Counted from the stretch's first letter, positions 1 through 25,072 are shown. The stretch is DNA of 64,000 nt from Candidatus Eiseniibacteriota bacterium (GCA_003235575.1 QJVW01000079.1:25525-89524); one strand, 5' to 3'. Numbers and translations: made by a program. Notes: generated from the letters alone by a model not told the origin.

Positions 1-1082
1 GCCGCCACGAGGTGCGGGCGTTTCTGCTCAGCAGCGCCCTCTTCTGGCTCGACCGGTATCACATCGACGGCATTCGCGTGGACGCCGTGGCCTCGATGTT
101 GTACCTCGACTACTCGCGCCGCGAGGGGGAGTGGATACCGAACGAACACGGCGGCCGGGAAAATCTCGAGGCGATCGGATTTCTTCGCGAGATGAACGAG
201 CGCGTGTACGGGGAGTATCCCGACGCGTTCACGACCGCCGAGGAATCGACGTCGTGGCCGATGGTCTCGCGTCCGCTCTACGTCGGAGGCCTGGGCTTCG
301 GATTCAAGTGGGATATGGGCTGGATGCACGACACGCTCACGTTCATGTCCAAGGACCCGATCCACCGCCGATTCCATCACCACGCGCTGACGTTCCGGAT
401 GATCTACGCCTACCACGAGAACTTCATGCTCCCGCTCTCCCACGACGAAATCGTGCACGGCAAGGGATCCCTGTTGGGGAAGATGCCCGGCGACGAGTGG
501 CAGCGCTTCGCCAACCTTCGCCTGATGCAGGCGTGGATGTATGCGCAACCCGGAAAGAAGCTTCTGTTCATGGGGGGCGAGTTCGGGCAGTACGCGGAGT
601 GGAGTCACGATCGGAGTCTGGATTGGCACCTGCTCGACCACGAGCCGCACCGCGGGGTGCAGCGGCTCATCGGAGATCTGAACCGGCTGTATCGGGAGCA
701 CCGCGCCCTGCATCAGTTCGATTGTGACAGCGCCGGGTTCGAGTGGGTCGACTGCACCGATCAGGACCAAAGCGTGGTCAGCTTTCTCCGGCGCGGGGAA
801 GATCCCGACGAGGCCGCTCTCTTCGTCTTCAACTTCACGCCGGTGCCCCGGCACAACTACCGGGTCGGCGTTCCCTGGCCCGGCGCGTGGCGCGAGATCC
901 TGAACACCGACGCCAGCCACTACGGTGGCAGCGGCCATGGCAACCTGGGCAACGTCGCGACCGCGCCGGTCTCCTTTCACGGCCGGGCGCAGTCGCTGAA
1001 CCTCGTCATCCCCCCGCTTGCCGCGGTGGCGTTTCTCGGCTCGCGGCATGGCGGCGCGCCGTCGGAGGGGCGCAGCGGGTGA
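1..1082 (+). CDS. glgB: 1,4-alpha-glucan branching enzyme, C-terminal part (5' truncated by window edge)
   Basis: GH13 GlgB motifs: [65 protein letters not shown]. Confidence 0.96.
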
Positions 1083-5889: not shown

Positions 5890-5938
5890 TCGCGGGCCGC
5901 CACACCCCACGGCCCGCCGTCGTCCCGCCCGCGCGGGG

Positions 5939-7222
<1,284 letters not shown>

Positions 7223-7256
7223 GGTGCGCTCTCCTTCTGCCGCGGCGGACGCGGCC

Positions 7257-9008
7257 TTATGTCGTGTCCCGCCCGCCGTCCTCCGAATGAAGGCGCCGGT
7301 GGGCCGGGTAGGGAAAGATGTCGGGCACGATACCCCGCCGGTGAACGTCCTGGGCCCGCCGCCAGAAGTCGGGCGTGAGCAGCTCGCCGTGCGCGGCGAG
7401 AAAGCACTCCCGCAGATCGCCGCGCAGACCCAGAAACGCCGAGAACTCCTCGGGGAAAATGTCGTGTTCTCCTACAAAATACCACGGTTCGGAGGACACT
7501 TCCTCTTCGGATGTTGTGGCGGCGGGCAGGTCGCGAAATCGGCAGTCGGTCAGCAGGCAGAGCTCGTCGTAGTCGTAGAAGATGACGCGCCCGTGCCGGG
7601 AGACGCCGAAGTTCTTCAGCAGCATGTCCCCGGGAAAGATATTGGTGTCCGCCAGGTCGCGCATCACCTGCCCGTAGTCGAGCACGGCGGCGCGCGCCAG
7701 GTCCGGCGGCGCCTCGCGGAGGTAGACGTCGAGGGGGATCAACTGTCGCTCGGTATAGAGATGCCGGAACGTCACCTGGCCGTCCCAAACCGTCACCGTC
7801 TCCGACGCTTCCGACACCAGTTCCTCCAAGAGACCGGGCTCGAACCGTTCCGTCGGGAACACCAGGTGCTCGAACTCCTGCGCGTCCACCAGCCGACCCG
7901 CGCGGTCGTGCCGGAACACGAGGCGGTACTTGTCGCGGACTTCCTCGCGCGTCACGCTCTTCGGGGGCGGGAAGCGATCCCGGATCACCTTGAACACGAC
8001 CTCGAATCCCTCGAGGGCGAACACGATCATGACCATGCCGCGCTGCCCGCGGGCGACGTGGAACCGCCCGTCGGTGGTCTGGAGATGCTGGACCAGCCAG
8101 CGATACAGCTCGGTCTTCCCGTGGCGGTGGAAGCCGATCGAGGTCCACAGGTCGGGAATCGGCTTCTGCGGCAACAGCACGGAGAGAAAGTCGATCATCT
8201 CCTTGGGACGGTCCACCTCCACGAAGAAGTAGGCGTGCGCGAAACTGAAGATCACGCTGAGTTCCTCTTCGCGGAGCAGGGCCGCGTCGACGCGGATGCG
8301 GCCCTCCGGATTGCGCAGCGCGAGGAGCAGGGGATAGGAGGCATCCCCGGCGTGGATGAGACCGATGAGGTACGCCCCCTTTCCGCGAAAGAAGGGCTCG
8401 CGGACCATCTCGATGGCGTCGATCGGGACGTTCTTCAGATGGCGTTCAATGGCCGCCGCGGCGCGATCGGCGTCCCCATGGATGTCTTCCCAGGGAAGTC
8501 GAAGCGCCGACGCCTGGAAGGCGCGGCGCAGCGCTCCGGCGGTTCCCGCCGTCGCGTCGTGTCGATGCGTGAAACTCCAGGGCGGCCCGTAGCGACGCGG
8601 CGACGCGCCGGGGCGGACGAACTCAGCCAGGGGATCGACGCCGACCGTGTGGAAGACCCGCCGGACGATGGAATTGAAGTACGTCTCGGCGAGATCCCGC
8701 TCGGAGGGGGCGATGGGCTGTCGATCGAACGCGTCGCGAACGGCGCGCCACGTCGTCCGATCCGAGGCGCGGGATCCCAGAATCGCCCCCATCGCATCGA
8801 GGCTCTGGGCGATGCAGGCGCCGTAGAGATCCAACCGCCGTTTCGGATTCCGGTGCACCGCAGCGCCGGCGCTCCGCTCGAAGTGCGTGCGCGCCTCGCG
8901 GGTCAGCACGCGGAATCGATCGAGGTACCGATCGAATCCCTCGGCGATGGCGCGCGCCGCCGCGTGCGCGAGGGCGGGGGGGTCGGACTCCTGGCTGGTC
9001 GGGGTCAT
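7257..9008 (-). CDS. aceK: Isocitrate dehydrogenase kinase/phosphatase
   Basis: AETYFNS, FYRGKG-like [70 protein letters not shown]. Confidence 0.93.
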
Positions 9009-9109
9009 GGTGGAGTTCTAGTGTACCCAACGTTCGGCGGGCGCGCGAGGGCGGCGGTGGGACGATTCCGTGGATGACCACGTCCCCCCGGCGGAGTAGA
9101 GTTGTTTCC

Positions 9110-9661
9110 ATGATGCGCCACGATGAATGTCCGCCGCCTGCAACGTGCGCTGGACCGGGTTCGGGAGGAATCGTCCCGCGTCGAGGCGTCGTACGCTCCG
9201 TGGCCGCGCTGCTCGTGGCGGCGGTCGTCGGCACCGGGTGTCAGGCGCCGGCTCCTGCTTTCTTGACCGATGCCGACCGGGCGGCGCTGGCGCGGGGCGC
9301 GGAGGCATGGGCCCAAGCGGCCGAGGCCGGAGATCCCGCCGCGCTCGGGGCCCTGTACGTCGAGGATGCGGTGGTGCTGCCTCCGAACCAGGGAGTCGTA
9401 TCCGGTCGCGCCGCCATCGAGACACACTTCGGCGCATTTCCGCCGCTTTCGAACGTACGGCTCGACCAGATCGAAGTGGAGGGATCCGGCGACGTCGCCT
9501 ACGTGCGTGGCCGCTACGCGATGACGATCCACGTGCCGGGCGCATCGGAGCCCACATCGGATCAAGGCAAGTACCTCGAGATCTGGAAGAAACAGGCGGA
9601 CGGCTCGTGGATGATCGCGCGCGATATGTACAGTTCGGACCTGGCGGCCACCGGACCGTGA
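9110..9661 (+). CDS. Probable lipoprotein with SnoaL/NTF2-like (DUF4440/YybH-type) domain
   Basis: Lipobox-like VVGTGC; LYVEDAVVLPP...GRAAI; GDVAYVRGRY; GKYLEIWKKQADGSWMIARDMYS. Start uncertain (9074 or 9110). Confidence 0.75.
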   Translation: MMRHDECPPPATCAGPGSGGIVPRRGVVRSVAALLVAAVVGTGCQAPAPAFLTDADRAALARGAEAWAQAAEAGDPAALGALYVEDAVVLPPNQGVVSGRAAIETHFGAFPPLSNVRLDQIEVEGSGDVAYVRGRYAMTIHVPGASEPTSDQGKYLEIWKKQADGSWMIARDMYSSDLAATGP

Positions 9662-9667
9662 GGCATC

Positions 9668-11941
9668 ATGATCGGTAGGACGCTCGGCAGTTTCACGATC
9701 CTCGCCAAGATCGGCGAGGGTGGCATGGGCGAGGTCTATCGGGCGCGCGACGCGCGGCTCGACCGGGAGGTCGCGCTCAAGGTGCTTCCCCCCGACGTCG
9801 CGGGGGACGCGGGCCGTCGGCGGAGGTTCGAGCGCGAGGCCCGCGCCGCCGCCGCGCTCAACCATCCCCACATCGTGACCATTCATTCCGTCGAAGAGGA
9901 AGACGGCACGATGTTCCTCACGATGGAACTCGTCGCCGGCCAACCGCTCTCGGATCGAATTCCCGCCGGGGGCATTCCGACCGTCGAACTGCTCCCGCTG
10001 GCGATCGGCATGGTCGACGCGGTGGCCGCCGCGCACGAGCGGGGGATCATCCACCGCGATCTGAAGCCCGGGAACATCCTCGTCGATGGCGGCGGGCAGA
10101 TCAAGGTGCTCGACTTCGGACTCGCCCGGATGACGGCCCCCCCGTCGGACGGCGCGGCGGACGTCACGAACACCGCGACCGAGGCGGGGATCGCGATGGG
10201 CACCTACCCCTACATGAGCCCCGAACAGGCGCTTGGTCGGACCGTCGACGCGCGGAGCGATCTGTTCAGCCTGGGCGCCGTCCTCTACGAGATGGCGACG
10301 GGGCGCCGCCCGTTTCGAGGCTCCACGGCCGTCGAGGTCGTCGGGAAGATCCTCCATCAGGCGCCGGACCCGGTCGCGTCGGACGAGAGTTCGGGGCGCG
10401 ATTCGCTGGCGCGCGTGATCTGGAAGTGTCTGGAGAAGGACGTCGACCGCCGTTACCAGACCGCGCGGGACCTCCTGGCGGACCTGCGCAATCTCGCGCG
10501 GGACGTGGAGGAGCGGGGCGCCGCCCCGGCGCCATCGGCGCCTACCGACGCGCGCATCGATTCGATCGCCATCGTTCCGTTCGAGAACGAGACCGCCGAT
10601 CCCGAGGCGGAATTCCTGTGCGACGGACTCGCCGAGAGCCTGATCAACACGCTATCGCAGCTTCCGAGGCTTCGCGTGATCTCGCGAACATCCAGTTTCG
10701 CGTTCAAGGGGAAGCAGTCGGATCCGCGGCGCGTCGGTCAGGATCTTCGGGTCGGCGCCGTGCTCGTCGGTCGGATGACGCAGCGCCAGGGACGACTGGT
10801 GGTGAGCGCCGAGCTCGTGGACGTCCGCGACAGCCGGCAGCTCTGGGGCGGCCGCTTCAATCGTCCGCTGACCGACTACTTCGATATCGAGGCGGATCTT
10901 GCTGAGGTCATTTCGGGCAAATTGGCCCTCACCCTTTCCCCCGAGGAGCAGTCGAAGCTGAAGCGCCGCCACACCGACGATCCGCAGGCCTACCAGCTCT
11001 ACCTCATGGGCCGGCAGTTCATGGTGGGCACGCCGGACCAAATGGCCCGCTCGCTGCGCTATTTCCGCGAAGCGCTGGAGCGCGAGCCGGACTACGCGCT
11101 GGCGCACGCCGCCCTCGCCGAGGCCTACGTCATCCAGGTCGTGCATGGCGTCCACTCCCGGGAGGAGGGGCTGCGCGTCGCAAGGGCCGCGATGGCCCGC
11201 GCCCTGGAACTCGATCCCCATCTCGCCGAAGCGTATACCGTGCAGGGCATGATCGCCGCCACGTTCGACTGGGATTGGGCGACCGCCGAGGCCGCGCACC
11301 GTCGCGCCATCGCCCTGAGCCCGGGGAGCAGCGTGGCGCGCCTGGAGTTCGCCGACTTCCTCTGCGCGACGGATCGTGCCGAGGAGGCGCTCGCCGAGGG
11401 GCTGGAGGCGCAGCGGCTCGATCCGCTTTCGGCGGGGACGACGCACTGGGTCGCCTTTTGCCTGCTTTGCATGGGGGACTACGACGGCGCCATCCGCGAG
11501 TTCAAGAAGGCGCTGGCCCTCTACCCGCATTGGGTCTGGGGGTGGATCAAGATGTCGTTCGCGCACACGAGGAAGGGGGCGCACGCGGAGGGGCTGGAGG
11601 CGGCGAACCGCGCCGAGGTCGAGAGCGGCGGGAAAGCGAGCCCGTTGGCGAAATCCTGGATCGCCTACGCCTGCTTCCATTGCGGCGACCCCGAGAAGGG
11701 GCGCGCCATGTACGCGGATCTCCTGACCCCGGGCGCCGAGGATCCGGTCGATTCGCTCATCATGGGAGTGGCGCACGCGGTTCTGGGGGACGCGGATGCG
11801 AGCTTCGCGTCCCTGGAGCGCGCCTTCGAGGAACGCTCGCCGAGCTTGTACTTCCTGAAGCTCCTTCCGCGCCTGTACCCCGAATTCCCGGCCAGCGACC
11901 CGCGCTTCGCGTCGCTCCTGCGGCGGATGCACTTGATCTGA
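9668..11941 (+). CDS. Hanks-type Ser/Thr protein kinase with TolB-like and TPR domains
   Basis: IGEGGMGEVY, VALK, HRDLKPGN, DFG, YMSPEQ, SDLFSLG; then SIAIVPFEN...LRVISRTSSF and TPR repeats. Confidence 0.92.
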   Translation: MIGRTLGSFTILAKIGEGGMGEVYRARDARLDREVALKVLPPDVAGDAGRRRRFEREARAAAALNHPHIVTIHSVEEEDGTMFLTMELVAGQPLSDRIPAGGIPTVELLPLAIGMVDAVAAAHERGIIHRDLKPGNILVDGGGQIKVLDFGLARMTAPPSDGAADVTNTATEAGIAMGTYPYMSPEQALGRTVDARSDLFSLGAVLYEMATGRRPFRGSTAVEVVGKILHQAPDPVASDESSGRDSLARVIWKCLEKDVDRRYQTARDLLADLRNLARDVEERGAAPAPSAPTDARIDSIAIVPFENETADPEAEFLCDGLAESLINTLSQLPRLRVISRTSSFAFKGKQSDPRRVGQDLRVGAVLVGRMTQRQGRLVVSAELVDVRDSRQLWGGRFNRPLTDYFDIEADLAEVISGKLALTLSPEEQSKLKRRHTDDPQAYQLYLMGRQFMVGTPDQMARSLRYFREALEREPDYALAHAALAEAYVIQVVHGVHSREEGLRVARAAMARALELDPHLAEAYTVQGMIAATFDWDWATAEAAHRRAIALSPGSSVARLEFADFLCATDRAEEALAEGLEAQRLDPLSAGTTHWVAFCLLCMGDYDGAIREFKKALALYPHWVWGWIKMSFAHTRKGAHAEGLEAANRAEVESGGKASPLAKSWIAYACFHCGDPEKGRAMYADLLTPGAEDPVDSLIMGVAHAVLGDADASFASLERAFEERSPSLYFLKLLPRLYPEFPASDPRFASLLRRMHLI

Positions 11942-12049
11942 CCGTCGCGCGCTCGTCGTACCCCCCTCCGCACGACGCCTACCATGGTCGCCCATCCGGC
12001 TCCGACCAGGGCGACCACCGGACCGGGATGCCGCCCCTCCGGGTCATGC

Positions 12050-12084
12050 TTGAATCACCATTCAAAGATTGACGCGTGGTTCAA
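12050..12084. promoter_or_regulatory. Tandem 16-bp palindromes, candidate TetR operators
   Basis: TTGAATCACCATTCAA (12050-12065, 6-4-6 perfect arms) and TTGACGCGTGGTTCAA (12069-12084), immediately upstream of GGAGG (12091-12095) and the TetR start. Confidence 0.6.
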
Positions 12085-12101
12085 CCCGCCGGAGGCGTCT
12101 C

Positions 12102-12782
12102 GTGTCCCTGTCCGCGTCACCGCCGTCATCGCGCGTTCGCGCCAAGCGTGAGCGCCGCCGCGAGGAGATCCTCCATGCCGCGCTGCGGGCATTCCGGGAG
12201 CGCGGCTACCATGCGACCACGCTGGACGACATCGCCGGACGCCTGGGCGTGCGCAACACCGCGCTCTACCACTACTTTCCGGACAAGGAAGCGATCCTCT
12301 ACCGGTGTCACCGCGAATCGCTCGGGGAACTCGACCGCATTCTCTCCGAGGCGCGCCGGCTTCCCACGCCGCGCGAGCGCTTGACGCACGTCATTCGCGA
12401 ACACGTCCGCGTCATGATCGAAACACTGGAAGGATCGCCCCTGGCCTTCGAGGTCACCTCCCTCTCCCCGCGGCGGCAGGCGTCGATCATCGCCGCGCGG
12501 GACCGGTACGAGCGGTCCGTCCGGCGCATCGTGGAGGAGGGAATCCGCCGGGGAGCGTTCCGCGGCGTCGACGCGAAGGTCGCGGTCTTCGCCATTTTGG
12601 GCGCCATCAACTGGATCGCGCGCTGGTATCGCCCTGGAGGCGCCCTCCGGGCGAGTGACTTGGGCGAACAGTTCGCGGATCAATTGCTCGGCGGTCTGGG
12701 GGTCGGCCCGCCGTCGCGGTCGGCCGTACGGTCCCGACCCCGGCGAGAGAACGGTGTGCACTCAGGGAGGAAGCGAGCATGA
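12102..12782 (+). CDS. TetR/AcrR family transcriptional regulator heading the benzoyl-CoA operon
   Basis: HTH FRERGYHATTLDDIAGRLGVRNTALYHYFPDKEAIL; C-terminal GAINWIARWYRPGG. GTG 12102 has a GGAGG SD; the stop overlaps had (ATGA). Confidence 0.9.
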   Translation: MSLSASPPSSRVRAKRERRREEILHAALRAFRERGYHATTLDDIAGRLGVRNTALYHYFPDKEAILYRCHRESLGELDRILSEARRLPTPRERLTHVIREHVRVMIETLEGSPLAFEVTSLSPRRQASIIAARDRYERSVRRIVEEGIRRGAFRGVDAKVAVFAILGAINWIARWYRPGGALRASDLGEQFADQLLGGLGVGPPSRSAVRSRPRRENGVHSGRKRA

Positions 12783-13828
12783 AGGCCCTACGATTGGAGG
12801 AGGCGAACGCGCCGCTCCAACTTCAGGAGTTGCCGGTGCCGAAACCGGGCGAGGATGAGGTTCTCGTACGGGTGGCCGGGTGCGGCGTCTGTCACACGGA
12901 TATCGGGTTTTGGCGCGATGGAGTCCCCACGCGCCACGGAATCCCGCTCACGCTGGGGCACGAGATCAGCGGCGTGGTCACCGCGGCCGGCGCGGCGTAC
13001 CGCGATTGGGTCGGCCGCGAGGTCATCGTCCCCTCGGTCATTCCCTGCGGCCAGTGCGACCTCTGCCGGGCCGGGCGTGGAAACGCCTGCCGAAAGCAGA
13101 AGATGCCGGGCAATGACATGGATGGGGGATTCGCCGACTACATCGCCGTGCCGGGACTCGGGCTCTGTCCGGTCGAGACGCGAAACGGCTACGACCTGGC
13201 CGAACTCTCGGTCATCGCGGACGCCGTCACCACGCCGTATCAGGCCGCGGTCCGAAGCGGCCTCTCCGCCGGCGACCTCGCCATCGTGGTCGGCGCGGGC
13301 GGCGTCGGCGGGTACGCGGTTCAGGTGGCCGCCGCCCTCGGCGCCCGCGTCGTCGCGCTCGACGTGGACGACGCGCGCCTCGAAGCCATCGCGCCCCACG
13401 GGGCTTCCCTCACGCTCAATTCCGAGGCCAATGACTTCAAGACGCTCAAGAAGGAAATCGTCGGGGCGGCGAAGGCCTGGGGCTGTCCCCCCAACGGATG
13501 GAAGATCTTCGAATGCTCCGGACACCCCGCGGGGCAGGAGACGGCGTTCGGCCTGCTGGGGTACGCGGGCGTCCTCATGGTCGTCGGGTTCACGTTGGCC
13601 AAGATCGAATTGCGGCTCAGCAACCTGATGGCGTTCGACGCCACCGTCCAGGGGACCTGGGGTTGCCGACCCGAGCTCTATCCGGAAGCGCTGCGACTCG
13701 TCACGGAGGGACGCATCACGTTGAAGCCGTTCATCGAACGTCATCCGCTCGCGGAGGGAGCAGAGATCCTGCGCCGTGTGGCGGATCACGAAGTTCACAA
13801 GCGGGCGATCCTGGAACCGGCCGCCTAG
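12779..13828 (+). CDS. had: 6-hydroxycyclohex-1-ene-1-carbonyl-CoA dehydrogenase (Zn-dependent MDR)
   Basis: GCGVCHTD, LGHEISG, PCGQCDLC...C, MPGNDMDGGFA, DAVTTPYQA, LMAFDATVQGTWGC; located in the dch/oah/bcr cluster. Confidence 0.88.
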   Translation: MKALRLEEANAPLQLQELPVPKPGEDEVLVRVAGCGVCHTDIGFWRDGVPTRHGIPLTLGHEISGVVTAAGAAYRDWVGREVIVPSVIPCGQCDLCRAGRGNACRKQKMPGNDMDGGFADYIAVPGLGLCPVETRNGYDLAELSVIADAVTTPYQAAVRSGLSAGDLAIVVGAGGVGGYAVQVAAALGARVVALDVDDARLEAIAPHGASLTLNSEANDFKTLKKEIVGAAKAWGCPPNGWKIFECSGHPAGQETAFGLLGYAGVLMVVGFTLAKIELRLSNLMAFDATVQGTWGCRPELYPEALRLVTEGRITLKPFIERHPLAEGAEILRRVADHEVHKRAILEPAA

Positions 13829-13874
13829 GCCCGGCACGCCGACGGCGCGTCGCCGTCCGCACGGAGGACCTACC

Positions 13875-14981
13875 ATGCAGTTGAAGAACCATTCGCTCCT
13901 AGCGGATTACCGATTCGAGCACATCACCTACGAGCTTCGCCCGGCCGTCGATCCGAAAGGTCGCCCGGTCGACGGGCTCTTCAATGCCTGGATCGTGCTC
14001 GACAACCCATCCCAAATGAACAGCTACACGACGGACATGGCTCGCGAGGTCGGCATCGCCTTCCGGCAGGCGAGCATGGATCGCCGCGTCGTCTGCTGCG
14101 TCTTCACGGCGACCGGCGACCGGGCGTTCTGCACCGGGGGAAACACGAAGGAGTACGCCGAGTACTACTCGGGGAATCCGCAGGAGTACAAGCAGTACAT
14201 GCGCGTGTTCAACGACATGATCGACGCCATCCTGCGGTGCGACAAACCGGTCGTCAATCGGGTGAACGGGATGCGTGTCGCCGGGGGGCAGGAGATCGGG
14301 ATGGCCTGCGACTTCAGCATCGCCGCCGATACCGCGCGCTTCGGCCAGGCGGGCCCCAAGCACGGGTCGGCGCCGGACGGCGGCTCCACCGATTTTCTGC
14401 CGCTCTACGTCGGCTTCTCCCACGCCATGGACAGCGCCGTGCTCTGCGAGATGTGGAGCGCGCACAAGGCGCTCTATCTCGGACTCCTCACCCAGGTCGT
14501 GCCGGTGCTGCGGCTCGACGGGCAATGGATTCCGAATCCCCTCGTCGTGACGGATCGGTTCCTGGACGAGTTCGGGCGCATCGTCTACGGCGACTTCAAG
14601 ACGGGCGAGGCGGCCGCCGCCGGGAAAGCAACCATGGCGAAGGCCACCGTCGACCAGTCACAGCTCGACCAGGCGGTCGAGGCGCTGTGCACCAAGATCC
14701 TGATGCTGATGCCCGATTGCGTCTCGAAGACGGTCAACGGCATCCGCAAGCACAAGCAGCGTCACTGGGACTTGAACGCCATCACCAATCGCGAGTGGCT
14801 GTCGCTGAACATGATGACGGAGGCGCGCGCCGGCTTCCGGGCGTTCAACGAGGGGCCGAAGGATCGCCGTGAAGTCGATTTCATCAAGCTTCGCCAGATG
14901 CTGGCGCAGGGTCATCCGTGGGACGACGAGCTCCTCCGGGCGATCTCTCCGCAGTTTCAGACGGAGGTGGCGGGGCGCTGA
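13875..14981 (+). CDS. oah: 6-oxocyclohex-1-ene-1-carbonyl-CoA hydrolase (ring-opening)
   Basis: NAWIVLDNPSQMNSYTT, AFCTGGNTKEYAEYYSGNPQEYKQYMR, GGGQEIGMACD, QAGPKHGSAP; ATG 13875 follows a GGAGG SD. Confidence 0.95.
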   Translation: MQLKNHSLLADYRFEHITYELRPAVDPKGRPVDGLFNAWIVLDNPSQMNSYTTDMAREVGIAFRQASMDRRVVCCVFTATGDRAFCTGGNTKEYAEYYSGNPQEYKQYMRVFNDMIDAILRCDKPVVNRVNGMRVAGGQEIGMACDFSIAADTARFGQAGPKHGSAPDGGSTDFLPLYVGFSHAMDSAVLCEMWSAHKALYLGLLTQVVPVLRLDGQWIPNPLVVTDRFLDEFGRIVYGDFKTGEAAAAGKATMAKATVDQSQLDQAVEALCTKILMLMPDCVSKTVNGIRKHKQRHWDLNAITNREWLSLNMMTEARAGFRAFNEGPKDRREVDFIKLRQMLAQGHPWDDELLRAISPQFQTEVAGR

Positions 14982-15002
14982 CCGCCCGCCACGGGGAACG
15001 GC

Positions 15003-15752
15003 ATGAACCTGGGCCTCGAGGGGCGGACGGCGGTCGTGACCGGAGGCGCCTCGGGGATCGGCGCCGCGGTGGCGGTGGCCCTGGCCGGCGAGGGATGCGA
15101 CATCGGGGTCGTGGACCATCGCCCCGCCACGGAGGCCGGATCGGTGCTGTCGGCCATCGAGGCGGCCGGGCGGCGGGGCCTGTACGTGGAAGCGGACGTT
15201 CGGGATCCGGCGCGGGCGGAGCGCGGGATCGCCACCATCGTCGACGCCTGGGGGCGGCTGGACGTGCTGGTGTGCTGCGCCGGGATCACGGACGACGCCG
15301 TCTCCTGGAAGATGACGCCCGAGCAGTGGGATGCGGTCATCGGCGTCAACCTGACCGGGTGCTTCCTTTGGAACCGCGCGGCGGCGCGCGTCATGAAGGA
15401 GCGGGGCAGCGGCCGCATCGTGAACATCGGCTCGATCAACGGCCTGCGCGGCAAATTCGGGCAGGCCAACTACGCGGCGTCGAAGGCGGGCATGGTGGGG
15501 CTTTCGAAGACGTTGGCCCGTGAACTGGGGAAATACGGCGTGACGGTGAACGTCGTGGCCCCCGGGATGGTTCGCACGCCGATGACGGCCCGGTTGCCGC
15601 GGGACGTCGTGGATCGGGCGATCGGCGAGACAGCCGGGGGACGCCTGGCCGAGCCGGAAGACTGCGCCGCCGTGGTGGCGTTTCTCTGCTCGGAGCGGGC
15701 GGCCCACGTGACCGGGCAGGTGGTTCGCGTGGACGGAGGACAGTACCCATGA
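15003..15752 (+). CDS. Short-chain dehydrogenase/reductase (3-oxoacyl/3-hydroxyacyl-CoA type)
   Basis: VTGGASGIG, CCAGI, IGSING, YAASK, VNVVAPG, VTGQVVRVDGG. A role in the lower pathway is inferred from context only. Confidence 0.85.
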   Translation: MNLGLEGRTAVVTGGASGIGAAVAVALAGEGCDIGVVDHRPATEAGSVLSAIEAAGRRGLYVEADVRDPARAERGIATIVDAWGRLDVLVCCAGITDDAVSWKMTPEQWDAVIGVNLTGCFLWNRAAARVMKERGSGRIVNIGSINGLRGKFGQANYAASKAGMVGLSKTLARELGKYGVTVNVVAPGMVRTPMTARLPRDVVDRAIGETAGGRLAEPEDCAAVVAFLCSERAAHVTGQVVRVDGGQYP

Positions 15753-15783
15753 GTCGGGCGTCCGGCAGCGGAGGAGGGGCAAG

Positions 15784-16542
15784 ATGCTGGTGAAGACGAG
15801 TATCGAGGGCGGCGTCGCCACCCTCACGATCGACAACCCCCCGCTGAACGTGATCACCCAGGCGCTGGCGCGCGCGCTGCGGGAGGCGCTGCCGCCGCTG
15901 GCCGAGCGCGGGGATCTGCGCGTCCTGCTGGTGCGGGCCGAGGGAAAACACTTCTCGGCCGGGGCGGATGTCGGCGAGCACCTGCCGCCGACGTACCGGG
16001 ACATGATTCCCGAATTCCTCGAGACCGTCGAGGCCGTGGCTGCCTTCCCGCAGCCGGTGATCGCCGCCGTGCGCGGGCGCTGCCTCGGGGGCGGCTTCGA
16101 GCTCGCGCAGGCCGCGGACATCATCGTCGCGGGGGAGGGCGCGTCCTTCGGGCAGCCGGAGATCCTTCTGGGGGTGATCGCCCCCCTCGCCTGTGTGGCC
16201 CTGCCGCGCGTCGCCGGCCGAGGGGCGGCGGCCGAGATGCTGTTCACCGGGGACCCCGTCACCGCGCGCCGGGCCGCCGAACGGGGCATCGTCCAGCGCG
16301 TGGTGCCTGACGATCAGGTGGAGAGCGAGGCGGCGGGTCTGGCCGAACGGATCGCCACCCGGAGCGCCCCGGCGCTGCGGCTCACGAAGCACACGCTGCG
16401 GGCCTCCGCGCTGCGGGCGCGTCCGGACGCGCTGCGCCTGGCGGAGCGGATCTACGTGGACGAGCTGATGGAGACGGAGGACGCCGTCGAGGGACTTCGC
16501 GCGTTCCTCGACAAGCGCGCCCCGAACTGGAGGCACCGGTGA
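15784..16542 (+). CDS. dch: Cyclohexa-1,5-diene-1-carbonyl-CoA hydratase (crotonase fold)
   Basis: HFSAGADVGEHLP, RGRCLGGGFEL, FGQPEILLGVIAP, EDAVEGLRAFLDKR; operon context. Confidence 0.85.
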   Translation: MLVKTSIEGGVATLTIDNPPLNVITQALARALREALPPLAERGDLRVLLVRAEGKHFSAGADVGEHLPPTYRDMIPEFLETVEAVAAFPQPVIAAVRGRCLGGGFELAQAADIIVAGEGASFGQPEILLGVIAPLACVALPRVAGRGAAAEMLFTGDPVTARRAAERGIVQRVVPDDQVESEAAGLAERIATRSAPALRLTKHTLRASALRARPDALRLAERIYVDELMETEDAVEGLRAFLDKRAPNWRHR

Positions 16543-17708
16543 ACGAGGTCGTGGTCTTTCCGGAATGGCGGGAGAAGGATCTCGACGGGATCCTGGGCGC
16601 CTGCCTCGAACTCATCGAGGACACCACCTTCCCGACCGTCAAACGGTGGCGCGACGCGGGCGGCAAAGTCGTCGGCCACTTCCAGGTCTACTTTCCCGAG
16701 GAACTCGCCGACGCTGCGGGGCTCCTGCCCTTCAAGGTTCGCGGCGCTTCGATCGACGCCTCGCAGGCCGACTCGCGGTTCGGCTCCTACCTTTGCTCCG
16801 TCGTGAAGACGTCGCTGGAGCTCGCCCTCAGCGAGCGGGTCCACCTCGACCTCTTCGTCACGCATCCGATCTGCGACGCGGCGCGCAACCTGGCGGCCGT
16901 CTGGGGTCGAAACGTCTCCTATCCCTGCCAGATCCTCTACCTGCCGCAGAACGCCGCCTCGCCGAGCGCGGCGACGTATCTCCGCGGGGAGTACGACCGG
17001 CTGCGCCGGGTCCTCGAAGGCATCGCCGGAGCGCCGGTGCCGAACGAGGCGCTCCGGCGCTCGATCACGCGCTTCAACGAGAATCGCGCCTTGCTCCGCG
17101 AGCTCTATGCGATCAAACGGGAAACGCCCTGGCAGGTGGCCGCCCATGAGGCCTACGTGCTGACGGCGGTCGGGGGACTGGTGCCGCGCGAGGAGCACAA
17201 CGCGCTGCTCCGCACGGTCCTCCCGCTCCTTCGCAGCCGGGCGGCGCATGCGCAGGACCGCATCCGCGTCGTCTTCGAGGGCGGATTCTGCGAGCAGCCG
17301 CCCCTCGACCTCATCCGATCGATCGGCCGGTCCTGCTACGTCGTGGACGATGACTTCCTGATCGGCATGCGCTGGATCCTCGACGACGTGGATCCCGGCA
17401 AGGATCCCCTCGCCGCCTTGGCGGCCGCGTACCTGGAGGGATCCGGGTACAGCCCGGTCCAGCACGATCCGCGGAAGCCCAAGGAGCGGATGCTCCTCGA
17501 CCGGATCGATCGTTCCGATGCGCGGGCGGCCATCGTTTCCTCCGCCAAGATGTGCGAGCCGGGCCTGGAGGAACAGGTCGCCTACGTGCAGGCGTTGGAC
17601 GGAGCGCGGATTCCTCACTTCGTGACGGAATTCGAGGAGAACATGACCACGTTCGAGCAGCTCGAGATCCAACTGGAAACATTCGTCGAGAATCTTCTCT
17701 TCGACTGA
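16539..17708 (+). CDS. bcrC: Class I benzoyl-CoA reductase, BcrC/BzdN-like subunit
   Basis: SYLCSVVKTSLEL, ICDAARNL, FNENRALL, GFCEQPPLDLI, YVVDDDF, KMCEPGL; GTGA overlap with dch. Confidence 0.85.
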   Translation: MNEVVVFPEWREKDLDGILGACLELIEDTTFPTVKRWRDAGGKVVGHFQVYFPEELADAAGLLPFKVRGASIDASQADSRFGSYLCSVVKTSLELALSERVHLDLFVTHPICDAARNLAAVWGRNVSYPCQILYLPQNAASPSAATYLRGEYDRLRRVLEGIAGAPVPNEALRRSITRFNENRALLRELYAIKRETPWQVAAHEAYVLTAVGGLVPREEHNALLRTVLPLLRSRAAHAQDRIRVVFEGGFCEQPPLDLIRSIGRSCYVVDDDFLIGMRWILDDVDPGKDPLAALAAAYLEGSGYSPVQHDPRKPKERMLLDRIDRSDARAAIVSSAKMCEPGLEEQVAYVQALDGARIPHFVTEFEENMTTFEQLEIQLETFVENLLFD

Positions 17709-17717
17709 GGGGCAGCC

Positions 17718-19025
17718 ATGGAAACGGAATCGAAGCACGACGGCATCGTGGGGCGCGGCAATCGGGAAGGCGCACGCCTCTTCCGGGAGTGGTTCGACTC
17801 CTTGACCCGAGCCGCCGAGGAAGATCGGGGCGGCGCCTATGTCTTCGTCATGGGAAGCCTCGGCGAATTGCTGCGCGCGTTCGACCTTCCGGTCGTCTTT
17901 CCCGAAATCAATTCCCTCCAAACCGCGGTGCGCAAGGTCGCGCACGAATACCTGAACGAGGCGGAGGATATCGGGTACTCCCCGGACATTTGCGGGTACG
18001 TGAAAGCCGACATCGCCACCCAGCAACGGGGCGGGCAACTTCCCATGGGGCGGATCCCCAAACCCGCCATCGCGGTCCTGACGAACGCCTGCAACACCTA
18101 CATCAAGTGGGCGGAGATCTGGGAGCGGATGTACCACATGCCGTGCTACGTGCTGGACGTGCCCGGTTCCCGCGCCGATGGGCTCACGCCGGGACCCGGC
18201 GACCGGGACTTCGACAACGACCGGCGCTATGTGGCCGCGCAATTGAAGGAGCTGATCGGGCTGCTCGAGGAAACGACGGGAAAGCGGTTCGATATCGACC
18301 GCCTGCGCGAGTCGCTGGTCCACGCGAACGCCATGAACCAGGGGTGGCAACGGGTCCTGGAGCTGAACCGGAGCCGTCCCTCCCTCTTCAACGCGCTCTC
18401 CGACGGAACGATCTATCTCGGTGTCTCCAACGGCTTCCGGGGCGCTCCCGAGGGCGCCCGGTACTTCACGGAACTGGTCGAGGAAATGGAGTACAAACGC
18501 GATCAGGGCATCGGGACCCTCGTCGACGAGCAGTACCGCCTCATCTTCGTCGGGGTGCCGTGCTACCCGATCTTCCGGCGATTCACGGAGCTCTTCACCG
18601 AGCACGGCGGGACGTTCGTGAACTCGACCTATCTCTGGTTCGCATCGGGCGGGTCGAACCTGGGGTTCCAATACGATCCACGGGATCCGCTCGAAAGCCT
18701 GGCCGAGGGCGTACTCGTGGGCGTGCGCGACGCGATGGACAGCATGTTCTTCCAGACGCGAGCGCTCGCCGGGATGATCGACGACTACGCCGCGGACGGC
18801 ATCGTGTTCCACCCGATCAAGAGCTGCCGCACGGTCTCGACCGGGCTCGCGGACAACCGCCGCGCCCTGATGGCGATGCGTGACATTCCAAGCCTGTTCG
18901 TCGAGTCGGACATGATGGACCGGCGTGTCGTTTCGGAAGCGCAGATGAAGAACCGCGTGGACGCGTTCTTCGAGGGTCTCGCCTCGCGCCGGCAACTGGC
19001 CGGGGCGGGCCGCGGCGAAGCGTAG
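17718..19025 (+). CDS. bcrB: Class I benzoyl-CoA reductase, BcrB/BzdO-like subunit
   Basis: [64 protein letters not shown]. Confidence 0.85.
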
Positions 19026-19039
19026 GGGAGGGAGGCCTC

Positions 19040-19858
19040 ATGGCGTACGCGGCGGGAGTCGATGTGGGTTCCACCCAGACGAAGGCGGTCGTGATCGACG
19101 AGGGGGGGCGGATCGTCGGGCGCTCCCTGACCGCGACCGGCGCCAACGTGATTCGGGCGGCGGAGGACGCCTTCCGCGAGGCCCTGGCCGACGGGGATCT
19201 GCGCGAGGAGGAGGTGGAGTACGTCGTCGGCACCGGCTACGGACGGTACAAGGTGACCTTCGGCAACACGCAGGTGACCGAGATATCGTGCCACGGCCGC
19301 GGCGCCGTGCACATGTTCCCGGCGACGCGGACCGTCGTCGACATGGGCGGTCAGGACACGAAGGCGATCCGCGTCTCCGCCCGCGGGGAAATCGAAGATT
19401 TCTGCATGAACGACAAGTGCGCGGCGGGAACGGGGAGGTTCCTGGGCGCGGCATCCTCGGCGCTCGACATTCCGCTGGAGCAGCTCGGTCCGACGGCGCT
19501 ACGGGGCGAGCGGCCGGTCAAGATCAGCACGACCTGCACGGTCTTCGCCGAGACCGAAGTGCTCTCGTGGCTGGGGAAGGGCAAGAAGATCGAGGACATC
19601 CTCCTCGGTGTGCACCACTCGATCGCGTATCGATCCGTCGCGCTTCTGTGGCGGACGGGGATCGAGGACGAAGTGACCTTTACCGGGGGCGTGGCCAAGA
19701 ACATCGCGATGATCGCGGCGTTGGAGCGGGAAATGGGCAAGAAGGTGAACGTGAGCGAGGAATCCCACTACATGGGCGCGCTCGGCGCGGCGCTGTTCGC
19801 CTTGGATCACATCGTGGCGAGTCGCGCGCCCGTGCGCGCCAGGGGGGTGACGCCATGA
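19040..19858 (+). CDS. bcrA: Class I benzoyl-CoA reductase ATP-dependent activase subunit (short BcrA/BzdQ-like)
   Basis: [55 protein letters not shown]. Confidence 0.8.
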
Positions 19859-20715
19859 GGCTCGTCGCCGGCATCGACGTCGGCTCGACGTACACGAAGG
19901 CGCTCCTCCTGCGGGAGGATCGCAGCATCGCGGCGCACGCCCTGGAGCCGACGGGCTTCCGGCTGGCCGAGATCGCCGAGACCGCATTGCGCCGCGCCCT
20001 GGAGCGCGCGGGGCTCGCGCGCGACGCGGTGGACTACATCGTGGCGACCGGCTTCGGCCGCCATCAGGTGACCTTCGCGGACGTGCACGTCACCGACATC
20101 ACCGCCGCGGCGCGCGGCGCGACGCTGCTCTTCCCGGGTACGCGCACGGTGCTGGACGTCGGAGGCCAGACGATGAAGGCGAGCCGTCTCGCGGAGACGG
20201 CGAAGGTCAAAGCGTTCCGCCTGAACGACAAATGCGCGGCGGGGACGGGGGCGTTTTTGGAAAAGACCGCGCGCTACATGGGGTACAGCACCGAGGAGAT
20301 CGGGCCGCTCGTGGCCACGTCGAAGGAGTTCCCGGCGATATCGGGCGTCTGCGCCGTCTTCGCGGAATCGGAAGTCATCAATCACCTCTCCCACGGCGTG
20401 GCGCCGGCGGACATCATGCACGGGGCGATCGTCTCCCTGGTCGGCCGGTCGGTGCAGCTCATGAAGCGGGTCAAGATGGAGCCCGAATTCACGCTGATCG
20501 GCGGCATCCTGCGATTCGAGACGATGGTCCGCGTGGCGCGGGAGGCCCTTCGCGCCGACGTCAACGTACCGGAGGGCGATCTCGTGCAGTTCGTCGCGGC
20601 GCTCGGCGCGGCGCAATTGGGTCATCGGCGCCTCGACCAACTCGCCGGGGGAACGCCCGCGACGGCGACCGGTCGCGCCGAGGCGCGCACCGGGGTCGGA
20701 CCGGCGGAGGGATGA
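19855..20715 (+). CDS. bcrD: Class I benzoyl-CoA reductase second activase subunit (BcrD/BzdP-like)
   Basis: [48 protein letters not shown]; ATGA overlap with the preceding gene. Confidence 0.8.
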
Positions 20716-21032
20716 ACCGGTCCGCCGAGGAGGGGTCGGGCGCGCCTCCCGACCGCCTCGCTTCTCTCGTCCGCGAGGAGGCGCTGCGCGCCGAGGCGCA
20801 GGCGCAGGTCCGACCCGATCCCGCCCGACTGGAGCAGGGGTGGACCCGGCGCTTCGTCGTCGAGGCGCGGCGGGTGGAGGAGTACGTGCGTCTCTACGAG
20901 TCGATCGGCTACGAGGTGGCCGCCGATCCCGTACGGCGCGAGCAGGTGGACGACCGCTGCGATGACTGCCGCGTCGTGCTCCTGCTGGATTACCGGACGA
21001 TCTACACCCGAACGAAAGAGGTGTCCCCATGA
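20712..21032 (+). CDS. Small uncharacterised protein (106 aa) with CxxC
   Basis: ATGA overlaps at both ends; GWTRRF...LYESIGYEV...RCDDC...TIYTR; codon style matches neighbours. Confidence 0.75.
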   Translation: MNRSAEEGSGAPPDRLASLVREEALRAEAQAQVRPDPARLEQGWTRRFVVEARRVEEYVRLYESIGYEVAADPVRREQVDDRCDDCRVVLLLDYRTIYTRTKEVSP

Positions 21033-21697
21033 ACCCAGCGAGATCTCGAATTGCCGTGCTCGTCTTCTTGATCGTCGCGACCCCGTGCGCGGGATTCGCC
21101 GAAACCGGCGAACCAGGACCGGCCTCCCTCCACGGTCGCCACGCGCTCGCCGCCCGCCTGGGGGTGTTCAATCACGGCAGCATCGCCGTGAGTTCCGGCA
21201 CGGCCGGCTCCTCGACGCGCGTCAGCGGTTTCGCGGGATACGGTTCCTATGCCTACGGCGTTGCTCCCGAGTGGATGGTGGGGGTGACCGCCGGCTCCCT
21301 CGACGCGGAAGTCCTGTCGAGCGTGACGCCCGGCAGCGTCATTTCGAGTGTCGCTTCGGTAACGCCGATCCTCTTCGAGGCGCGCTGGTATCCGCTCGGG
21401 CTGGCGATGGGATCTACGGGTCGTCCATTCTTCGGAGCCGCGATCGGACCGTACATCGGTTCGGCCATCAACGCCATTGTGGGGTCGCAGGGGTCGAGCG
21501 GCACCATCACCGAATCGGTCGTGGGAGGCCGCGCGCAAGCCGGAATCGACTGGATCGTGGGCCGGCGGTTCCTGCTGGAGGTCGCCGGCGGCTACCACCT
21601 GGTGGGCGAATTCGACGAGCCGATCGGCAGCGAAACCGACTACAGCGGCGCGGAATTCACCTTCGGTATCGGCATCCTCTTCGGAACGCCGCGCTAG
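21029..21697 (+). CDS. Outer-membrane beta-barrel protein (OmpW/OmpA-like, small)
   Basis: Signal peptide, alternating amphipathic strands, PFFGAAIG, C-terminal FTFGIGILF. Confidence 0.7.
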   Translation: MNPARSRIAVLVFLIVATPCAGFAETGEPGPASLHGRHALAARLGVFNHGSIAVSSGTAGSSTRVSGFAGYGSYAYGVAPEWMVGVTAGSLDAEVLSSVTPGSVISSVASVTPILFEARWYPLGLAMGSTGRPFFGAAIGPYIGSAINAIVGSQGSSGTITESVVGGRAQAGIDWIVGRRFLLEVAGGYHLVGEFDEPIGSETDYSGAEFTFGIGILFGTPR

Positions 21698-22839: not shown

Positions 22840-23556
22840 ATGACGCAAGGAACAGCCTTGGGTCGCGCCGTCACCGTCGACGCCCGCGACCTCGCGCAGC
22901 AGCTGCCCTTTCTAGAAGGCGCCGGTCCAGCGATCCGTAGAAAGATCGCCGACGCCGGAACCGTCGCGCATCTGGCGCGCGACGAGTACTTCCTGCGGGA
23001 AGGGGACGTCTGCTCGACGTTCGCGATCGTGCTTTCCGGCCGCCTTCGGGTCTTCAAGTTGGGCGAGAGCGGCCAGGAGATCACGCTGTACCACGTCGGT
23101 CCGGGTGAGGCGTGTCCGCTGAACGTCTCCTGCATCCTCTCCGATCGTCCGGTGCCCGCGATGGCGAAGGCGGAGGATGACGTGTCCGCGCTCGTGGTCC
23201 CGGCCGACACCTTCCGCGCCTGGATGGCGGACGTGGCGCCCCTGCGGGCCTTTATCTTCGAAATGTTCGCCGAACGATTGACCGAGGTGATGTCCCTCGT
23301 CGAGGAGGTCGCGTTCCGGAAAATGGATCAGCGATTGGCTTCGTACTTGATGGCCATGTTCGACCAGGAGGAAGAGACGGGGGACTGCGTCGCGGTGACC
23401 CACGCGCACATCGCATCCGAACTGGGCACGGCGCGCGAAGTGGTCAGCCGCTTGCTCAAGGAATTCGAACGGCTGGGCGCCATCGAACTCTCCCGCGGGC
23501 GCATCTACCTCCGCCGTCCCGAGCTGCTCGCCACGTGGAACCAGCATGATGCGTAG
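22840..23556 (+). CDS. Crp/Fnr family transcriptional regulator
   Basis: cNMP-like domain (SGRLRVFK...EITLYHVGPGEAC), C-terminal HTH THAHIASELGTAREVVSRLL; GGAGG SD before ATG 22840. Confidence 0.9.
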   Translation: MTQGTALGRAVTVDARDLAQQLPFLEGAGPAIRRKIADAGTVAHLARDEYFLREGDVCSTFAIVLSGRLRVFKLGESGQEITLYHVGPGEACPLNVSCILSDRPVPAMAKAEDDVSALVVPADTFRAWMADVAPLRAFIFEMFAERLTEVMSLVEEVAFRKMDQRLASYLMAMFDQEEETGDCVAVTHAHIASELGTAREVVSRLLKEFERLGAIELSRGRIYLRRPELLATWNQHDA

Positions 23557-23714
23557 ACGGGAAGGGCCGACGGCGCCACGGAGTCTCTGGGGAGTGGACG
23601 CTTCCCTTGACCACGGGGGTCTGGCAAAGGGTGACTCGGGGAGCATCTCGTCGAGGTGCGCCGGGCGCCGCCGGAATCCCATCGCTATGATGCGCCGCGC
23701 GGCGCAACGATTCC

Positions 23715-23728
23715 GTGACCACGGTCAC
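23715..23728. promoter_or_regulatory. GTGA-N6-TCAC palindrome, candidate Crp-family site
   Basis: GTGACC-AC-GGTCAC between the Crp/Fnr gene and the next start. Confidence 0.35.
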
Positions 23729-23734
23729 CATTCT

Positions 23735-25072
23735 ATGTGCTTTGCAGACAGCGGGTTCGGTGTTCGACGCGCGCTCGCGGTCCTCGTGTGCGTCGCCGCC
23801 ATCGCCGCGCTCGTTCCGGGACAGGCGCGCGCCGCCGCGGAACGATTCTACGACCGCCTTCGTTCCGCCCGCGCCCTGGCCGCGGAGGGTGATCTCGCGG
23901 CCGCCCGCGAGTTGTTCGTAACGCTCGACAGGGAGGAAGGGGGCCACCCGTCGTCCCTGTGGAGTCTGGCGCGGATCGACGCGATACGCGGCGACGGGGA
24001 AGGCGCGGTCCGCGCGCTCGACGCGTTCGCGGGAATGGGCCTGGCGGGCTTTCCCGCGCGCGATTCGAGCTTCGCCGTCCTCAACGGTTTTCCCCGGTAC
24101 GAGACCGTGCTGCTGCGGCTCGCGAAGAACGCGGCGCCGCTGGCGAACGCCTCCGTCGCGCATCCTCTGGACGATGCGGGACTACTGCCGGAAGACCTGG
24201 CCTACGACCTGCGAACGCGGACCCTCTACGTCAGCAGCATTCACCGTCGCAAGGTGATCGCCATCGACAGCACGGGGACCCAGCGCGACTTCGTCGGCCC
24301 CGCGCAGAACGGCGTGTGGGGCGTGTACGGACTGGCGCTCGATGCGACGCGGAATCTCCTCTGGGGTAGCATGGCCGCGGGTCCCCTTTGCGAGAACGGC
24401 GATCCCGCCGATTCGGGGCGCACGGCGCTCGTCTGTTGGGATCTAGCTTCGGGAACGGAACGTCGGCGGGTCGAGTTGCCGCGCGACGGCGCGAGCCACG
24501 TCCTGGGCGACATCACGCTCGGGGAGGATGGAACCGTCTACGCCACCGAGTCGCTCGGCGGCGCACTCTACGCCCTTCGACCCGATGCCGCGGCCCTGGA
24601 TACGCTGGCGGCGCCCGGATCGTTCGGCTCTCCACAGTCGCCCGTCGTGCTTCCGGGAGGCGATCGCCTGATCGTCGCGGACTTCCCGCGGGGGCTCGTG
24701 CAGTTCGATCTCGCGACCCGGTCGATGGCTACGTTTCCGAAGCCGAGGTCGATGGCAGCCACCGGCATCGACGGGCTGACCTTGGTCCCCCGGCCGGGCG
24801 GATACGGACTGCTCGGCGTCCAAAACGGCACGCGGCCACGAAGAATCCTCTGGCTTTCGCTGGATGGAACCGCGGAACGCGTTCTGGGCTGGAAGGTCTT
24901 GGAGCAGGCGACCCCCGCCCTCGGCGAGCCGACGCACGCCATCGCCGTCGGCGACGAGGCCCTGATCATCGGCAACAGCGGCTGGGAGCGCGTCAACGAT
25001 CGGGACGAACTCGAGATGGGTCCCGGCGCAACCCCCCCCGCGATCCTTCGCATCCAATTGCCCGCTAAGTAG
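23735..25072 (+). CDS. Exported TPR plus beta-propeller (SMP-30/NHL-like) protein
   Basis: Signal peptide; LLPEDLAYD, VYGLALD, LGDITLGEDGTVY, GIDGL repeats; start uncertain. Confidence 0.7.
   Translation: MCFADSGFGVRRALAVLVCVAAIAALVPGQARAAAERFYDRLRSARALAAEGDLAAARELFVTLDREEGGHPSSLWSLARIDAIRGDGEGAVRALDAFAGMGLAGFPARDSSFAVLNGFPRYETVLLRLAKNAAPLANASVAHPLDDAGLLPEDLAYDLRTRTLYVSSIHRRKVIAIDSTGTQRDFVGPAQNGVWGVYGLALDATRNLLWGSMAAGPLCENGDPADSGRTALVCWDLASGTERRRVELPRDGASHVLGDITLGEDGTVYATESLGGALYALRPDAAALDTLAAPGSFGSPQSPVVLPGGDRLIVADFPRGLVQFDLATRSMATFPKPRSMAATGIDGLTLVPRPGGYGLLGVQNGTRPRRILWLSLDGTAERVLGWKVLEQATPALGEPTHAIAVGDEALIIGNSGWERVNDRDELEMGPGATPPAILRIQLPAK

Follow-up and report, generated by a model that had tools for sequence, protein, structure and literature searches.

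Class I benzoyl-coenzyme A (benzoyl-CoA) reductases are divided into three types, BCR, MBR (methyl/halo-benzoyl-CoA reductase), and BZD, and the MBR of Thauera chlorobenzoica is only 24 to 25% identical to BzdNO (PMC11971306). In Aromatoleum sp. CIB, the mbd genes are controlled by the TetR-family repressor MbdR, which is released by 3-methylbenzoyl-CoA (PMC4424350). Structures of the 3-methylbenzoyl-CoA reductase MbdONQP have been solved (PDB 9g87, 9gai, 9gal, and 9gba). Here, we analyzed a 64,000-nucleotide (nt) stretch of DNA (the window; G+C content, 64 to 72%) from a Candidatus Eiseniibacteriota bacterium (GCA_003235575.1, QJVW01000079.1:25525-89524), in which an earlier note, made from the sequence alone, had placed a complete upper benzoyl-CoA pathway at positions 12102 to 21697 (coordinates are those of the whole window, + strand). 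The genes very likely form an upper central benzoyl-CoA pathway operon whose core is an MbdNOQP-like, ATP-dependent class I reductase of MBR type, judging from sequence comparisons, and the operon is most likely that of a central pathway induced by a CoA thioester and repressed by its TetR protein. The reductase is a new member of the MBR type, a class that is already known and structurally solved. The order of genes that had been listed, tetR-had-oah-SDR-dch-C-B-A-D (SDR, short-chain dehydrogenase/reductase), and their sizes were right, and their tight coupling was confirmed (Table 1).

Each reductase subunit has its closest solved relative in the Mbd enzyme

Two PF06050 proteins and two PF01869 proteins are encoded by adjacent, coupled genes, the four-subunit composition of MBR-type enzymes. 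For every subunit the best solved relative was the corresponding Mbd subunit, one for one (52 to 70% identity): gamma matched MbdN (9g87_B) with 510 bits and 57% identity, beta matched MbdO (9g87_A) with 503 bits and 52% identity, alpha matched MbdQ (9gai_D, 269 amino acids [aa]) with 403 bits and 70% identity compared to 166 bits for MbdP, and delta matched MbdP (9gai_C, 273 aa) with 304 bits and 56% identity compared to 188 bits for MbdQ. Subunit lengths are also alike, at 389/435/272/286 aa for gamma/beta/alpha/delta here and 388/445/269/273 aa in the MBR system (MbdONQP of T. chlorobenzoica 3CB-1; mbd cluster of Aromatoleum [Azoarcus] sp. CIB). The MBR-like alternative that had been offered for the reductase is thus borne out, since each subunit is closest to its Mbd counterpart and beta groups with MbdO in the tree described below. 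Gene order differs, being gamma-beta-alpha-delta here and beta-gamma-alpha-delta in an Mbd-type contig (L086).

The two activase subunits had been described correctly as 272 and 286 aa long, but their shortness had been taken as an oddity. It is normal MBR architecture, because MbdQ has 269 aa and MbdP 273 aa; Thauera BcrA is the unusual one, carrying an insertion of ~170 residues that alpha (~270 aa) lacks. The match of alpha to the 432-position BcrA model was accordingly split, with a main stretch covering positions 229 to 432 only.

With BcrCBAD of Thauera aromatica and BadDEFG of Rhodopseudomonas palustris the operon shares the gamma, beta, alpha, delta order and the Dch/Had/Oah logic, and both reductases are predicted ATP-dependent heterotetramers. 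The description of the B and C subunits as Thauera bcr-like holds in that Bcr hidden Markov models were the top-scoring NCBIfam models for beta and gamma; it fails in absolute terms, as all four subunits scored far below the equivalog cutoffs of the Bcr type (222, 218, 238, and 138 bits for A, B, C, and D compared to 578, 487, 421, and 313), and beta is only ~34 to 35% identical to canonical BcrB representatives. The Thauera bcr cluster includes a ferredoxin gene. From BzdNOPQ of Aromatoleum sp. CIB (BzdNO, PDB 8s02; PMC11971306), the catalytic subunits are also distant: beta and gamma reached only 88 and 80 bits against the BzdO and BzdN structures, and the Bzd-type equivalog cutoffs were missed as well (BzdN, BzdO, and BzdQ at 92, 95, and 189 bits compared to 454, 449, and 380). 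The window reductase has in common with the Bzd enzyme its membership in the benzoyl-CoA reductase/2-hydroxyacyl-CoA dehydratase (BCR/HAD) family, alignable beta cluster ligands, and short ATPase subunits; Bzd modules are thought to associate only transiently.

Beta subunit phylogeny and mechanistic residues

A tree of the beta subunit only was built from 141 rows (IQ-TREE quick search, LG+C20), comprising the window beta, 25 relatives from named genomes, MbdO with 26 relatives, and 88 representatives clustered at 50% identity; canonical BcrB was represented by P0151 and P0152 (815 and 630 bits on TIGR02260). The window beta and MbdO share one clade of 56 to 57 rows (Shimodaira-Hasegawa-like approximate likelihood ratio supports of 100 and 96), and canonical BcrB and the dehydratase-like representatives fall outside it. 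Within the clade, 18 rows from Eisenbacteria, Gemmatimonadota, and Rokubacteria, among them the window beta, form a group with a support of 98. MbdO proper makes up a separate group of 10 rows, whose long branch (0.39) is nested within environmental sequences. A new subclass, also raised in the earlier note, is unnecessary: the window group and the MbdO group are joined by a continuum of sequences at 55 to 63% identity. The subunits neither nested in the canonical Bcr or Bzd clades with ordinary lengths nor grouped with 2-hydroxyacyl-CoA dehydratases, the two outcomes against which the note had set its proposal.

Residue roles in beta were taken from the BzdNO study (PMC11971306). Cys92, Cys125, and Cys370 of the window beta align with the BzdO [4Fe-4S] ligands Cys95, Cys128, and Cys380, ligands that MbdO has in common. 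The catalytic His131 of BzdO is replaced by Tyr128 in the window beta and by Phe in MbdO, and Tyr or Phe at this site is the rule among aligned Bcr- and MBR-like sequences. All seven gamma cysteines are common to MbdN, and of the BzdN cysteines that hold the [8Fe-9S] double-cubane cluster gamma retains only three (C86, C112, and C339). Cys127 and Cys166 occur in both alpha and delta, and this pair is also found in the Mbd ATPase subunits. In HgdC-type activators, it is the pair that binds the bridging cluster.

Ring-modifying enzymes

Two of the genes upstream of the reductase encode proteins that passed the equivalog thresholds for enzymes of the benzoyl-CoA pathway: Had scored 470 bits on TIGR03201 (cutoff, 339) and Oah scored 557 bits on TIGR03200 (cutoff, 464). 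The crotonase gene lies immediately 5′ of gamma in most related loci, and this conserved site, together with the best-matching model, suggests the role of Dch for its product. The SDR gene likewise keeps its place, after oah and before the crotonase gene, in the majority of related loci. Its product scored 240 bits on the acetoacetyl-CoA reductase model TIGR01829, its best models being FabG/PhaB, and it probably acts as the 3-hydroxyacyl-CoA dehydrogenase for 3-hydroxypimeloyl-CoA; a search for bzdZ or mbdZ to account for the SDR found nothing. We considered the SDR and crotonase as a BadH/BadK-type pair and rejected this assignment on the FabG/PhaB models of the SDR; it is further countered by a variant operon, described below, whose crotonase and alcohol dehydrogenase still match Oah and Had best.

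A conserved small gene follows delta

The start codon of a gene for a 106-aa protein overlaps the delta stop codon (ATGA), an arrangement for translational coupling. The protein had no match among Pfam families, PDB sequences, or PDB folds. An AlphaFold2 model (52-row alignment) has a predicted alpha/beta fold with a mean predicted local distance difference test score of 84 (>93 for residues 31 to 80). Of 65 related loci, 60 have the gene no more than 300 nt downstream of delta, and residues D36, G43, W44, R47, G66, C83, C86, and Y98 are invariant. A distant homologue (26% identity) with the same GWxxR...LGxEV...CxxC pattern is encoded downstream of delta in the Mbd-type contig L086 as well (positions 6350 to 6628); the beta subunit of that contig and MbdO are 78% identical. 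MBR-type reductase genes are thus accompanied by a conserved and previously undescribed small gene.

The protein might be an unrecognized fifth MBR component, for example, an electron-entry adaptor, redox partner, or assembly factor, and in nonproteobacterial soil and sediment phyla the usual ATP-dependent ring reductase, with a general benzoyl-CoA role, might be of the MBR type instead of Bcr or Bzd. We offer this combined proposal tentatively and hold it to be possible rather than probable. If the fifth-component reading is true, the 106-aa gene stands where other clusters have a ferredoxin gene. Our results leave knowledge of the enzyme class itself unchanged, and this conserved CxxC protein is the one mechanistic lead that they provide.

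Conservation of the operon and distribution of MBR-type genes

A scan with one genome per species found a relative in at least 554 genomes. Locus comparisons were made for the best 80 of these, which are close relatives (73 to 89% identity) and include no named Thauera or Aromatoleum locus; they are metagenome-assembled genomes (MAGs) labeled Candidatus Eisenbacteria, Gemmatimonadota, Acidobacteriota, Chloroflexota, Rokubacteria, and others. The full order TetR-Had-Oah-SDR-crotonase-gamma-beta-alpha-delta-small gene occurs in ~20 loci among these 80, and parts of it occur in most others. A variant operon is present in ~10 loci (L045, L046, L049, L050, L052, L060, L064, L069, L075, and L083), in which tetR is followed by the gene of an Oah-like crotonase (215 bits) and the small gene by that of a Had-like dehydrogenase (241 bits), both divergent and below their cutoffs.

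Of 201 genomes sampled from the host phylum, 62 have a beta relative, ~46 of them of the window type, and 13 have a canonical Bcr-type beta; the MBR type is ~3.5-fold commoner there than the canonical Bcr type. Beta identity tracks kinship, at 86 to 89% within the genus and 72 to 82% within the class, and a search of plasmid proteins returned only distant relatives (22 to 27% identity). The MBR subclass, hitherto studied in denitrifying Betaproteobacteria, is thus widespread in Eisenbacteria, Gemmatimonadota, and Acidobacteriota. Public names of close beta homologues are mostly “2-hydroxyacyl-CoA dehydratase family protein,” a naming that arises in NCBI records because the homologues miss the Bcr and Bzd model cutoffs. 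Surveys that rely on such names under-count MBR-type reductases, which bears on how aromatic-carbon turnover is read from metagenomes.

Four Gemmatimonadota loci (L024, L026, L033, and L040) carry a second, distant BCR/HAD-like set directly upstream of the MBR-type genes, with gamma- and beta-like proteins 23 to 26% identical to those of the window and two ATPase genes at 37 to 43%. Two other loci (L084 and L085; positions 10001 to 11344) contain a lone MbdO-like gene, 72% identical to MbdO, without gamma, alpha, or delta; it adjoins MazE/PIN toxin-antitoxin genes and gene fragments and looks like the remnant of a decayed mbd-type cluster. The contig of an MbdO relative (P0290) also has a lone beta gene beside toxin-antitoxin genes.

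The TetR protein and a candidate operator

The description of the operon as TetR led was sound: MbdR, the TetR-family regulator encoded with the mbd genes, is a direct precedent (PMC4424350), even though the two regulators are not orthologous. MbdR (PDB 4uds) is only distantly similar, its operator is ATAC-N10-GTAT where the palindromes upstream of the window gene are TTGA-N8-TCAA (a TTGAAN-N4-NTTCAA-like predicted operator), and the window regulator is itself the first gene of the catabolic operon. Common to both are the family, the MBR-type locus, and a palindromic operator, predicted in the case of the window; aryl-CoA induction, demonstrated for MbdR, would apply here by analogy.

Among solved structures, the best relatives of the window TetR are 3vpr (121 bits), 3dcf (111 bits), KstR2, and FadR. 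Several of these regulators respond to acyl-CoA ligands, and the window TetR is, by analogy, probably an acyl- or aryl-CoA-responsive repressor acting at the predicted operator. The gene is kept at the head of the operon with 62 to 75% identity across phyla. Just 5′ of its Shine-Dalgarno sequence (GGAGG, positions 12091 to 12095) lie two palindromes, TTGAAT-N4-ATTCAA at 12050 to 12065 and TTGA-N8-TCAA at 12070 to 12085. Of 36 related loci, 16 have the TTGA-N8-TCAA motif no more than 160 nt 5′ of tetR, compared to 26 occurrences in the whole 1.19 Mb of locus DNA, and most of the remaining loci have near-variants. Sites resembling TTGAAC-N4-GTTCAA, often in pairs and with a TTGACA-like box before them, also recur 5′ of tetR in related loci of several phyla. 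A promoter scan found no sigma-70 consensus, and terminator-like matches were no more numerous than expected by chance.

Host genome and supply of substrate and electrons

The assembly is 2.9 Mb in size and 95% complete. No second BCR/HAD-family set and no AOR/BamB family gene was found in this 95%-complete genome, and the window operon is therefore its only ring reductase. Ligase, ferredoxin, and BzdR/BadR-type regulator genes are absent from the cluster, as the earlier note had said; an oxoglutarate oxidoreductase and an ABC (ATP-binding cassette) transporter, which with ligase and ferredoxin genes distinguish the MBR cluster from the present one, are also lacking. The genome search located a benzoate-CoA ligase family gene (468 bits; cutoff, 375) on contig C114, in a region spanning positions 2 to 18072, divergent from a gene resembling salicylyl-CoA 5-hydroxylase/oxidoreductase (1,140 bits) and a crotonase gene. 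A few kilobases from the ligase, the same contig encodes a 2-oxoacid:ferredoxin oxidoreductase of the KorAB type and, after it, an Rnf complex. Activated substrate and reduced ferredoxin could plausibly come from the ligase, KorAB, and Rnf. One small ferredoxin-like open reading frame (ORF) is present elsewhere in the genome, on contig C35.

Two heme-copper oxidase genes are present and NarG was not found in the genome, so the host is not a classical denitrifier. The suggestion of an atypical host also agrees with the nearest relatives, which are MAGs labeled Candidatus Eisenbacteria. Several studies have yielded metagenomes of hydrothermal vents and marine sediments that contain the same DNA. 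Compared to the MBR hosts, this is an uncultured Eisenbacteria-like sediment bacterium. With the operon, a little-known uncultured phylum of marine and hydrothermal sediments gains an almost complete and well-conserved anaerobic pathway for aromatic rings.

Proposed pathway and alternative explanations

In the pathway that we propose, the alpha/delta ATPase pair with its bridging [4Fe-4S] cluster would receive electrons from a ferredoxin encoded elsewhere, and ATP hydrolysis would push these low-potential electrons into gamma/beta. Beta would convert benzoyl-CoA, and probably substituted analogues too, to a cyclic 1,5-dienoyl-CoA. The crotonase would then hydrate the diene, Had would oxidize the 6-hydroxy product, and Oah would open the ring to give 3-hydroxypimeloyl-CoA, which the SDR probably oxidizes. 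TetR would probably repress transcription at the twin palindromes until released by an aryl-CoA thioester, in the manner of MbdR and 3-methylbenzoyl-CoA. The sequence data establish gene content, homology, clade membership, and the conservation of cluster ligands and synteny; substrate, electron donor, regulation, and the parts played by the crotonase, the SDR, and the 106-aa protein are inferred.

Several observations weigh against this reading. The upper pathway had been called complete, dch included; this stands for Had and Oah, both above their cutoffs, but the Dch call is that of a best match, since the crotonase scored 183 bits on TIGR03189, short of the 292.5-bit cutoff and level with EchA19, a generic enoyl-CoA hydratase. 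The catalytic subunits are only 52 to 57% identical to the characterized MBR, so substrate preference is not readable from homology. MbdR scored only 44 bits over its full length against the window TetR, rank 24 among the PDB matches. Neither the cluster nor any of the 80 related loci contains a ferredoxin gene, and the C114 ligase may serve another pathway, given its salicylyl-CoA 5-hydroxylase-like neighbor. In addition, the genome is a metagenome bin, and none of the RNA runs contains the window sequence.

We weighed three other explanations. The closest characterized enzyme is a 3-methylbenzoyl-CoA reductase, and the operon is led by a TetR-type rather than a BzdR/BadR-type regulator, as in the mbd cluster (PMC4424350); the reductase could accordingly be a specialist for substituted rings (3-methyl-, chloro-, and other benzoyl-CoA analogues), like the T. 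chlorobenzoica MBR, and not a general reductase. We consider this rather unlikely, because the operon is the sole ring reductase of its genome and Had and Oah pass thresholds built on the benzoyl-CoA pathway. MbdO proper, moreover, sits on its own long branch amid environmental sequences, and since that branch is separate from the window group, the specialist role may be derived in the MbdO branch. A different possibility is a 2-hydroxyacyl-CoA dehydratase with its activator, or another nondearomatizing radical enzyme of the BCR/HAD family, as the public names of the closest homologues would have it and as HGD-D, the only Pfam family matched by the catalytic subunits, would allow. This is very improbable. 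Beta and gamma scored only 106 and 117 bits in the PDB comparison with the dehydratase subunits HadB and HadC, as opposed to 503 and 510 for MbdO and MbdN, and reached 129 and 140 bits on the HadB and HadC models, whose cutoffs are 750 and 700. The operon encodes two different ATPases instead of a single homodimeric activator, it is shared with Had and Oah, which act only on a dearomatized ring, and the tree sets the window beta apart from dehydratase-like sequences.

The third explanation accepts a ring reductase and regards it as a fourth, functionally distinct class I subclass that merely resembles MBR and might differ from it, for example, in electron donor, in a fifth subunit, or in ring substrate. 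The limited identity of the catalytic subunits to MbdN and MbdO, the well-supported 18-row subclade (98) of the window group, the gamma-beta order set against beta-gamma in L086, and the lack of a clustered ferredoxin in all 80 loci could be read in this way. We nevertheless judge it quite improbable, since the window group and MbdO lie in a strongly supported clade filled by intermediates, and subunit sizes and cysteine patterns are the same as those of MBR. The small CxxC gene is no distinguishing mark, because it also follows delta in the Mbd-type contig. The data are most consistent with a central benzoyl-CoA pathway operon built on an MBR-type reductase.

Gene layout and neighboring genes

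Eleven ORFs lie head to tail within positions 12102 to 21697, all on the + strand; the range as first described was correct for the nine genes listed, but the 106-aa and 222-aa ORFs had been overlooked. The coding signal is strong, with a third-position G+C content of 0.81 to 0.92 across the operon genes. Four-base ATGA/GTGA overlaps join TetR/Had, crotonase/gamma, alpha/delta, delta/small gene, and small gene/next ORF, and the remaining intergenic gaps are 9 to 46 bases.

Table 1. Predicted features of the operon and its upstream region in the 64,000-nt window
Feature	Positions	Strand	Length and family assignment
Candidate operator, two adjacent palindromes	12050-12085	+	Upstream of tetR Shine-Dalgarno sequence
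TetR regulator	12102-12782	+	226 aa
Had, Zn-dependent dehydrogenase	12779-13828	+	349 aa; TIGR03201, 470 bits
Oah, long crotonase, ring-opening 6-oxocyclohex-1-ene-1-carbonyl-CoA hydrolase	13875-14981	+	368 aa; TIGR03200, 557 bits
SDR, FabG/PhaB-like	15003-15752	+	249 aa; PF13561, PF00106
Crotonase, Dch candidate	15784-16542	+	252 aa; best match TIGR03189, below cutoff
Reductase gamma, MbdN/BcrC equivalent	16539-17708	+	389 aa; HGD-D, PF06050
Reductase beta, MbdO/BcrB equivalent, predicted substrate-binding active-site subunit	17718-19025	+	435 aa; HGD-D, PF06050
Reductase alpha, MbdQ equivalent, BcrAD/BadFG ATPase	19040-19858	+	272 aa; PF01869
Reductase delta, MbdP equivalent, BcrAD/BadFG ATPase	19855-20715	+	286 aa; PF01869
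Small CxxC protein	20712-21032	+	106 aa; no family
ORF with signal-peptide-like N terminus	21029-21697	+	222 aa; no family

The 222-aa ORF matched no Pfam or NCBIfam family, none of the 80 related loci has a homologue of it, and it is outside the conserved operon. An FNR-type role for a neighboring Crp-family gene was rejected, as the N-terminal Cys cluster is absent. A 508-aa ORF (positions 23546 to 25072) with coding-type composition and no Pfam match lies between a Crp-family regulator gene and a multiheme cytochrome operon.

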